Source: Octopus vulgaris
Lineage: Eukaryota
DNA: 64,000 nt
Assembly: GCA_951406725.2 (NCBI GenBank)
Contig: OX597824.1
Location: 25,172,001 to 25,236,000, forward strand
Direction: 5' to 3'
A program made the position numbers and the translations under genes. The notes beneath the pieces are model-generated. The model was given only the letters and a program-made list of their open reading frames with translations, made no database searches and was not told the origin of the DNA. Below, one piece after another: positions 53,601 through 55,997 of this stretch; within the stretch, counting starts at the first letter, position 1; each line of letters opens with the position of its first letter.

Positions 53601-55457
53601 CTTAGTTTCAGCTGTTATTTTCCGCAAGGAAAACTGCAGCCATCATCAGCATGGTCCGTTATAAATGTAATTTGCTGGACTAGATGCAAACACGATACCG
53701 AAATATCGCGTGCATGGAGTTCAGCCTATTACATTTGAATATATCTTTCAAATGCCTTTACTTTGGCGCGTTGAAACCCGAGAAAACTAGCCTGCAGCTA
53801 ATAATTAGCAGCAGTTAATTTATCGGTTAGAGAACATATTTATTTATATAAAATTAATTAAGGGTAGAAATTGATATTTATCAATTAAGACCAGTGGTCT
53901 AGCATATTAAAAAAGAATCCGAAGATTAAAATATTTATATATACCAATTAAGGACTGAACACGAAAAGTGGACAGTCAACATGCTAGATATAGACGTCAA
54001 ATCGTCATTCACCACAAAAGATTATGTTCTCAGATCAAACTCAACACAAAACCATAGCAATAAACAAGTGAAAAATATACGAAATAAAATAATTACCCAT
54101 GTACTAACTTAGTTTCAGCTGTTATTTTCCGCAAGGAAAACTGCAGCCATCATCAGCATGGTCCGTTATAAATGTAATTTGCTGGACTAGATGCAAACAC
54201 GATACCGAAATATCGCGTGCATGGAGTTCAGCCTATTACATTTGAATATATCTTTCAAATGCCTTTACTTTGGCGCGTTGAAACCCGAGAAAACTAGCCT
54301 GCAGCTAATAATTAGCAGCAGTTAATTTATCGGTTAGAGAACATATTTATTTATATAAAATTAATTAAGGGTAGAAATTGATATTTATCAATTAAGACCA
54401 GTGGTCTAGCATATTAAAAAAGAATCCGAAGATTAAAATATTTATATATACCAATTAAGGACTGAACACGAAAAGTGGACAGTCAACATGCTAGATATAG
54501 ACGTCAAATCGTCATTCACCACAAAAGATTATGTTCTCAGATCAAACTCAACACAAAACCATAGCAATAAACAAGTGAAAAATATACGAAATAAAATAAT
54601 TACCCATGTACTAACTTAGTTTCAGCTGTTATTTTCCGCAAGGAAAACTGCAGCCATCATCAGCATGGTCCGTTATAAATGTAATTTGCTGGACTAGATG
54701 CAAACACGATACCGAAATATCGCGTGCATGGAGTTCAGCCTATTACATTTGAATATATCTTTCAAATGCCTTTACTTTGGCGCGTTGAAACCCGAGAAAA
54801 CTAGCCTGCAGCTAATAATTAGCAGCAGTTAATTTATCGGTTAGAGAACATATTTATTTATATAAAATTAATTAAGGGTAGAAATTGATATTTATCAATT
54901 AAGACCAGTGGTCTAGCATATTAAAAAAGAATCCGAAGATTAAAATATTTATATATACCAATTAAGGACTGAACACGAAAAGTGGACAGTCAACATGCTA
55001 GATATAGACGTCAAATCGTCATTCACCACAAAAGATTATGTTCTCAGATCAAACTCAACACAAAACCATAGCAATAAACAAGTGAAAAATATACGAAATA
55101 AAATAATTACCCATGTACTAACTTAGTTTCAGCTGTTATTTTCCGCAAGGAAAACTGCAGCCATCATCAGCATGGTCCGTTATAAATGTAATTTGCTGGA
55201 CTAGATGCAAACACGATACCGAAATATCGCGTGCATGGAGTTCAGCCTATTACATTTGAATATATCTTTCAAATGCCTTTACTTTGGCGCGTTGAAACCC
55301 GAGAAAACTAGCCTGCAGCTAATAATTAGCAGCAGTTAATTTATCGGTTAGAGAACATATTTATTTATATAAAATTAATTAAGGGTAGAAATTGATATTT
55401 ATCAATTAAGACCAGTGGTCTAGCATATTAAAAAAGAATCCGAAGATTAAAATATTT
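38636..55457 (-). repeat. Tandem array of 33 full plus 1 partial 507-bp units, each with a hammerhead ribozyme (retrozyme/PLE-type satellite)
   Basis: GGGTAGAAATTG recurs at 38651, 39158, 39665 ... 55383 (33 x 507 + 1). The only differences I saw are one substitution in unit 1 and one extra A near 44280. No ORF of 60 aa or more in the track. Confidence 0.95.
38886..38950 (-). ncRNA. Type I hammerhead ribozyme (first of 33 copies, repeated every 507 bp)
   Basis: Minus strand: CCAUG-CUGAUGA-u-GGCUG[cag UUUUCC uugc GGAAAA uaa]CAGCU-GAAA-CUA agu UAG-UA-CAUGG. Complete core, stems I-III pair, GUA cleavage triplet. Confidence 0.85.
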
Positions 55458-55790
55458 CAAAGTAAAGGCATTTGAAAGATATATTCAAATGTAATAGGCT
55501 GAACTCCATGCACGCGATATTTCGGTATCGTGTTTGCATCTAGTCCAGCAAATTACATTTATAACGGACCATGCTGATGATGGCTGCAGTTTTCCTTGCG
55601 GAAAATAACAGCTGAAACTAAGTTAGTACATGGGTAATTATTTTATTTCGTATATTTTTCACTTGTTTATTGCTATGGTTTTGTGTTGAGTTTGATCTGA
55701 GAACATAATCTTTTGTGGTGAATGACGATTTGACGTCTATATCTAGCATGTTGACTGTCCACTTTTCGTGTTCAGTCCTTAATCGGTGTA
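55458..55790 (+). repeat. Inverted ~330-bp terminal segment of the 507-bp unit
   Basis: Reverse complement of the unit from ATATACCAATTAAGG to TTTACTTTG, which is the sequence that should follow 55457. Confidence 0.9.
55569..55633 (+). ncRNA. Type I hammerhead ribozyme in the inverted segment
   Basis: CCATG 55569-73, CTGATGA 55574-80, GAAA 55614-17, GTA 55626-28, CATGG 55629-33. Confidence 0.85.
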
Positions 55791-55997
55791 TATATATATA
55801 TATATATATATATATATATATATATATATATATATATATATATATATATATATATATATATATATATATATATATATATATATATATATATATATATATA
55901 TATATATATATATATATATATATATATAATCACATACGTTAATAGATCTATATATACATAAATATAAAAACAGACATCCACGCGCGCATACACACAT

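Follow-up and report, generated by a model that had tools for sequence, protein, structure and literature searches.

An inverted end on a tandem retrozyme array of Octopus vulgaris, probably formed by twin-primed reverse transcription

In a 64,000-nucleotide stretch of Octopus vulgaris DNA (hereafter the window), we found a 17-kb tandem array of a 507-bp unit that ends in a 329-bp piece of the same unit lying in the opposite orientation. Both ends of the array probably stem from a single insertion, in which RNA of a non-LTR retrozyme would have been copied by twin-primed, target-primed reverse transcription, probably by the enzyme of a Penelope-like element. The features on which this reading is built are given below in window coordinates; TSD denotes target-site duplication.

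38620..38635, plus strand: left copy of the candidate TSD, TG(TA)6AT, ending a mixed (TGTA)n/(TA)n tract (from the sequence)
38636..55457, minus strand (ribozyme-sense strand): head-to-tail array of the non-coding 507-bp unit, with one substitution at 38702 and one extra A
55111..55175, minus strand: last of the 33 type I hammerhead motifs of the array, one per unit (descriptor scan)
55457..55458, no strand: head-to-head inversion junction, unit position 458 joined to 287, blunt, with zero shared letters
55458..55786, plus strand (ribozyme-sense): inverted 329-bp piece, unit positions 287-1 and 507-466, with one substitution at 55784
55569..55633, plus strand: intact predicted type I hammerhead of the inverted piece (descriptor scan), GUA cut predicted after 55628
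55787..55930, plus strand: right copy of the candidate TSD, TG(TA)70AT, whose bottom strand matches the TA run of the unit at 7 of 8 positions
62137..62265, plus strand (ribozyme-sense): degenerate short copy of the same repeat family between (TG)n repeats, 76% identity, about unit positions 414-507 and 1-30

The array, its hammerhead and its inverted end

Units were numbered with position 1 at window position 55000. The array holds 33.18 copies in tandem and runs from unit position 369 to position 458. The full units are identical in 31 of 32 cases, the single exception being the unit that starts at 43845, which carries the extra A in a homopolymer. The longest stop-free frame in the unit is 60 aa and its GC content is about 0.33; the repeat is therefore of the kind that defines retrozymes, with non-coding tandem units of a few hundred bp and a GC content below 50%. 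Judged by its sequence, the short copy at 62137-62265 is an old member of the same family.

A descriptor scan of the 64 kb for type I hammerheads returned 33 motifs on the minus strand, all within the array, and one on the plus strand, with zero matches in the window outside the array and the inverted piece. Every consecutive unit thus carries a complete type I hammerhead by descriptor match, as in retrozymes. The motif at 55569-55633 consists of a 5-bp stem I, a CUGAUGA core, an extra U before stem II, an extended stem II with a G-U pair at its base, GAAA and a near-palindromic stem III. The hammerheads of Penelope-like elements have an extra base before stem II, a palindromic stem III and a G-C pair at the base of stem II (PMC4209133); the octopus motif shares the extra base and stem III with them but differs by the G-U pair. 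A family variant that is common in public contigs, 55613 T>C, changes this G-U pair to G-C. Other family variants alter or delete the centre of stem III (55622), and the core is free of any listed variant. Rfam did not recognise the hammerhead: 0 matches reached the gathering score, and hammerhead families stayed absent up to E ≤ 10. The ribozyme is therefore called from the descriptor and from family variation. A metagenome scan with a 22-nt hammerhead motif also gave 0 matches. A bacterial promoter scan stayed at chance level and is irrelevant for animal DNA.

The minimum-energy fold predicted for the motif is a competing fold, at -20.7 kcal/mol versus -16.1 kcal/mol for the hammerhead fold. 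The RNA of the whole unit folds far better than its shuffles, with z scores of -6.78 for the ribozyme strand and -6.11 for the other strand, and the monomer is predicted to be highly self-paired, as retrozyme monomers are. Because both strands score alike, the fold does not pick the strand. Taken by these sequence criteria, the 507-bp unit is a non-LTR retrozyme.

At the right end of the array, the forward match to the unit ends exactly at 55457 (position 458, ...AAAATATTT). From 55458 onwards, the unit is read as its reverse complement, from position 287 down to 1 and then from 507 down to 466. The flipped piece thus continues the unit from where it broke off, but inverted in place, with the TA run at positions 459-465 replaced by flank. 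The original prediction, made from the sequence of this stretch, had the last unit stopping at 55457 with about 330 bp flipped behind it; the position stood, and the length came to 329 bp. An opposite-strand hammerhead had also been predicted in the flipped piece, and a descriptor match was indeed obtained there, on the plus strand at 55569. With 33 hammerheads on the minus strand in the array and one on the plus strand at 55569, the flipped piece lies at the 5' end of the ribozyme-sense strand, and the strand of the descriptor matches thus backs the earlier placement. The predicted cut site falls at unit position 117/116, and the inverted piece spans it with its hammerhead intact.

The inversion places two arms, 54958-55286 and 55458-55786, on either side of a 171-nt loop with one mismatch between them. 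A transcript reading through would form this predicted hairpin, and the earlier proposal of an approximately 330-bp hairpin is right in its geometry.

Flanks, surroundings and a route of insertion

TA-rich microsatellite had been claimed for both flanks of the array, and each flank proved to carry TG(TA)nAT, with n = 6 on the left and n = 70 on the right. Elsewhere in the window this signature was found in 1 of 62 cases (31 other TA tracts, both strands). The candidate TSD encloses the array together with the flipped piece, and its two copies differ by 64 TA units. It is mostly low-complexity sequence, with just 4 letters outside the TA run. The candidate TSD would also account for an apparent substitution at 55788, as a letter of the target.

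The flipped piece starts at the longest alternating TA run of the unit (8 nt, positions 458-465), which the flank matches at 7 of 8 positions. Runs of at least 7 alternating nucleotides are available at 2 of the 507 unit positions and runs of at least 6 at 5 of the 507. The forward part stops at position 458, the first base and edge of the same run. The putative second primer is thus complementary, at 7 of 8 positions, to an internal RNA site that adjoins the inversion break, as twin priming entails. The left junction shows no clear microhomology. The second-primer microhomology, the blunt internal join and the position of the break beside the primer site together give the locus the geometry of twin priming, a process described as leaving microhomology where the insert meets the target and, in some cases, none at the internal join (PMC2837659). 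By analogy, the absence of microhomology at the left end agrees with the anole Poseidon protein, which initiates internally without homology (PMC11167929).

In the route that we propose, an endonuclease would nick both strands of the TG(TA)nAT tract. The top-strand 3' end would prime cDNA on the ribozyme-sense RNA at the usual internal start of the family (about position 369), and the TA-rich bottom-strand 3' end would anneal to the longest UA run of the RNA (positions 458-465) and prime a second cDNA of 329 nt. The first cDNA would then halt at the occupied site, the two cDNA ends would be joined bluntly head to head, and the target would be duplicated. The second cDNA runs across the site of ribozyme cleavage, which a linear monomer produced by cutting could not template; provided that the insertion came from RNA, it is firm that the template was a circle or an uncut multimer. 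An uncut multimeric transcript and a circle are equally possible templates. The ribozymes of Penelope-like elements cleave poorly in vitro (PMC4209133), and uncut RNA is the dominant substrate of the anole Penelope-like protein (PMC11167929), which makes the uncut multimer a real option.

An inverted, 5'-truncated copy is a frequent part of Penelope-like insertions, which prefer (TA)n as target (PMC8557442). In work on a Penelope-like protein, both strands of AT-rich DNA were nicked and extended, and synthesis on uncut RNA began internally (PMC11167929); 31 recently active Penelope-like families are described for O. vulgaris (PMC13282606). Among 35 scanned of the 68 ORFs of the window, none encoded a Penelope reverse transcriptase (RT) or GIY-YIG domain. 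The earlier view of an RNA-mediated, target-primed insertion with a 5' inversion into a (TA)n target accords with the candidate TSD, the microhomology at the TA run, the stop of the forward part and the common polarity of nine out of nine inversion joints found elsewhere in the family (see below). A-to-I editing was considered for the three end differences, which are all A>G or T>C; it was unsupported, 55788 being a TSD letter and the other two implying edits on the strand opposite the ribozyme.

The surroundings of the array hold several other repeats and genes. Tc1-type transposase remnants that are 85-88% identical lie one on each side of the array (34579-36014 and 57286-58596), each by a long TA tract. 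Two AT-rich imperfect palindromes occur at 32883-33439 (about 560 bp, 85% self-complementary) and 33546-33851 (about 300 bp, 93%). A LINE fragment with a zf-RVT domain is present at 8639-12989 as three tandem copies with a period of about 1.5 kb and 95-98% identity; these copies adjoin an RT fragment at 12915-13523 and lie between (TAT)n and (TTC)n tracts. A dispersed repeat of about 400 bp with an internal microsatellite is found in five copies (55999-56413, 3929-4341, 5006-5383, 21267-21695 and 62328-62734) and presumably resembles an octopus SINE.

HD-domain genes also cluster in the window, each a single ORF of about 410-420 codons, at 17592-18860 (minus), 23082-24350 (minus) and 29022-30245 (plus), with further partial copies at 1-1282 and 15104-15545. 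The best named relatives of the ORF at 29022-30245 are SAMHD1-like or hypothetical HD-domain proteins of Octopus, with 66-90% identity, and those of Argonauta show 51-52%, which places the host among the octopuses. From these sequences, Octopus appears to have many SAMHD1-like paralogues. SAMHD1 restricts retroelements in vertebrates, and the octopus expansion may for that reason deserve a look.

The repeat family in public sequence runs and other origins of the junction

At least half of the sampled words were present in 20 of the 24 listed sequence runs (8 studies, 4 organism labels), and the best run carried 0.88 of them. Contigs from 4 of the 24 listed runs were aligned to 55288-55794, a stretch that holds nearly every unit position once. 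In three DNA runs, 1754, 271 and 1531 contigs matched, with many variants and differing flanks; together with the old copy at 62137-62265, these contigs mark a dispersed multi-copy family. At 55373 (position 374), each of the 3 DNA runs showed a rise in summed depth of about 3- to 6-fold, and runs X2 and X16 had loose ends with TA-rich flank at 55357-55362; a recurrent end of the family thus lies close to where the array begins on the left. Other samples contained exact stretches of the unit, one of 415 nt in X2 and others of 77-150 nt at a depth of 746-1778 in X8. The X2 piece is in normal orientation; since X2 is RNA by guess only, it is not evidence of transcription. Among the listed runs that contain the sampled words, none is recorded as RNA.

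Twelve joints were found in the contigs, namely two of normal unit continuity, two small deletions and eight inversions; a separate table adds a ninth inversion. All nine inversion joints are head-to-head and of the same polarity as the octopus locus (tail-to-tail, 0), their short sides being 20-28 nt where listed, found at 88% likeness, with outer ends outside the contigs. Their inverted pieces start at positions 10 to 170, and six of the nine do not end at the TA run. In run X16, three inversion joints leave the aligned stretch at 55457, two of them via a TA linker and the third about 19 nt further on; leaving at this point is forced, because a contig that continues the unit past position 458 must exit there. 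The inverted matches within the unit itself (185-258, 391-408, 254-276 and several of 8-11 nt) were considered as a source of the family joints and set aside, as they do not connect the joint positions with each other.

In run X8, a head-to-head joint leads from 55414 to 55730 (unit position 415 to 15) in a contig with a depth of 548, and from this depth the inverted form seems itself to have been amplified. This joint and the old short copy (62137-62265) have similar limits.

Other origins of the junction were weighed against twin priming. Two separate RNA molecules, or two fixed start sites as in other Penelope-like elements, could have been primed at both nicks and have yielded cDNAs that were linked head to head; the apparent in-place flip would then be a coincidence or the result of a pause at the TA run. 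Such a course would suit the extension of both strands by a Penelope-like protein in vitro (PMC11167929), the routine occurrence of inverted 5' copies in Penelope-like elements (PMC8557442, PMC3846280), and the depth, which is also high beside positions 466-507 and suggests a second family end. Independent templates, however, would bring the forward 5' end within 1 nt of the second start in only about 3 of 507 cases, unless the RT prefers stopping there, and we consider this origin unlikely.

An inversion of the terminal 329 bp of the array at the DNA level, after insertion, for example through break repair at fragile TA runs, would draw on the self-complementary TA runs at one breakpoint and on an 8-bp palindrome that ends exactly at position 458. 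The TSD-like flank nevertheless encloses both the array and the flipped piece, with its right copy intact, and the single polarity of the other joints (9 of 9) does not fit such an event. Recombination of TA with TA would moreover leave TA at the internal junction, where none is present; a homologous TA-to-TA inversion is thereby ruled out, and DNA-level inversion in general appears improbable.

About as improbable is an artefact of assembly, with the flip, or a false link between two loci of a high-copy family, coming from a chimeric or fold-back read. None of the 32 public contig pieces listed from the 4 runs (there are 3,622 further pieces) bridges the junction 55457/55458. The junction therefore rests on a single assembly, and its absence from these 32 pieces neither confirms nor refutes it. 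The family is also very high-copy, an identical 17-kb array is hard to span, and inverted Penelope-like structures trouble assemblers (PMC8557442). Against an artefact, the 171-nt spacer means that the flip is not a mirror of adjacent sequence, and the inverted sequence passes into the flank at precisely the point of the unit at which the forward part had ended. TG(TA)nAT is present on both sides, and joints of the same polarity occur in independent runs. Fold-back self-priming was ruled out, the flipped piece having no mirror relation to adjacent sequence. Even with a correct junction, the copy number of the array could be wrong.

That the same twin priming was driven by a LINE (RTE, CR1, Tx1 or R4 type) in place of a Penelope-like element seems very improbable: although twin priming was defined for L1 (PMC2837659), several LINE clades were recently active in O. 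vulgaris (PMC13282606) and LINE fragments lie within the window, the element has no poly(A) or simple-repeat tail of its own, its start is internal to the unit, and its hammerhead has the Penelope-type extra base before stem II and palindromic stem III (PMC4209133).

Copy number and relation to known elements

The near identity of the units had been read earlier as a sign of rolling reverse transcription. The pattern of differences does not favour this, as the substitutions lie only at the outer ends and the lengths of the TSD copies differ by 64 TA units. The element has just two substitutions, at 38702 and 55784, each less than 70 bp from an outer end, and the 16,755 bp of interior have none. 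Later DNA-level expansion, homogenisation or assembly polishing would leave the same end-only pattern. Errors near priming sites could likewise account for it; the substitution at 55784 is the third base from the inferred primer. Because exact copies of the unit occur in other samples, unit identity may merely mark a young subfamily.

The copy number may thus have arisen in several ways. A shorter seed insertion (at least about 600 nt of forward sequence, with a 90-bp direct repeat) that was later expanded or homogenised at the DNA level is quite possible, and we lean towards it tentatively; the account is at its weakest in this step. It is doubtful that rolling reverse transcription on a circle made all 33 copies. 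Assembly inflation, or a non-RNA origin, is somewhat unlikely, and a 17-kb uncut transcript as the source of the array is more unlikely still.

The unit was compared with the metazoan non-LTR retrozymes of Cervera and de la Pena 2020 (PMC7229834) and of Li, Clavereau and Pollet 2026 (bioRxiv 10.64898/2026.07.22.740005). Like these, it is a non-coding, low-GC tandem unit with one type I hammerhead each and a self-paired predicted RNA, and its array, with tens of units, is comparable with the 62-mers of a coral and with beetle arrays that reach 300 units. Where present, their TSDs exceed 4 bp, as does the candidate TSD in octopus. The unit length of 507 bp exceeds the 150-450 bp of the former study (PMC7229834) and lies inside the 51-972 bp of the latter (bioRxiv 10.64898/2026.07.22.740005). 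The former proposed tandem cDNA from circles (PMC7229834); the latter proposed local DNA amplification of a Penelope terminal repeat, with a mechanism to be elucidated (bioRxiv 10.64898/2026.07.22.740005). Both papers leave the insertion mechanism as a hypothesis, and neither was found to describe an inverted end or a twin-priming junction on a retrozyme array (PMC7229834; bioRxiv 10.64898/2026.07.22.740005). A literature search over main texts, with few subscription papers, found no retrozyme with an inverted junction and no octopus retrozyme; the available text of PMC12602865, PMC9977147 and PMC6962438 added nothing on retrozyme ends.

With endonuclease-bearing Penelope-like elements and their pseudo-LTRs, the locus shares a head-to-head inverted 5'-truncated copy, a TSD around the whole (a candidate one in octopus), a (TA)n bias and an internal RT start (PMC8557442; PMC3846280; PMC11167929). 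It differs from them in that the octopus array has no ORF and comprises 33 units instead of a partial tandem, and in that no long palindrome is centred on the junction (PMC8557442; PMC3846280). The octopus ends, at positions 369 and 466, are about 97 nt apart, in contrast to a tail of 30-40 nt; in the anole element, synthesis of the two strands begins at sites 30-40 nt from each other and without target homology, whereas one of the octopus starts has homology (PMC11167929). A head-to-head inverted 5' copy in a microsatellite target is what a non-autonomous Penelope-like derivative would show, and the unit holds no ORF, and so neither the RT nor the GIY-YIG ORF of an autonomous element. In this comparison, the locus works like a non-autonomous Penelope derivative and not like an autonomous Penelope element.

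The twin-priming 5' inversions of L1 share with the octopus locus the in-place inversion, the microhomology at the second primer, the blunt internal join and the TSD, which is a candidate here (PMC2837659). In contrast to L1, the octopus locus has no poly(A) tail or LINE sequence, its template would have been a non-coding ribozyme repeat, and its forward part is a 17-kb tandem (PMC2837659).

Since the inversion itself is a known signature of Penelope and LINE elements, its presence here is a moderate surprise. Both ends of the locus are readable and resemble ends made by reverse transcription, which supports RNA-mediated insertion of the retrozyme family. The value of the locus is that it offers support at the level of the junction for RNA-mediated insertion of animal retrozyme arrays. 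It also offers a test of one-step against later amplification, through the copy number across alleles and the empty site. It is conceivable, though we are doubtful, that a Penelope-like RT primed at nicked (TA)n ran 33 laps on a 507-nt circle and wrote 17 kb until the capture of the RNA by the second strand stopped it. If true, the locus would be a direct footprint of rolling-circle retrotransposition founding a satellite array in one step.
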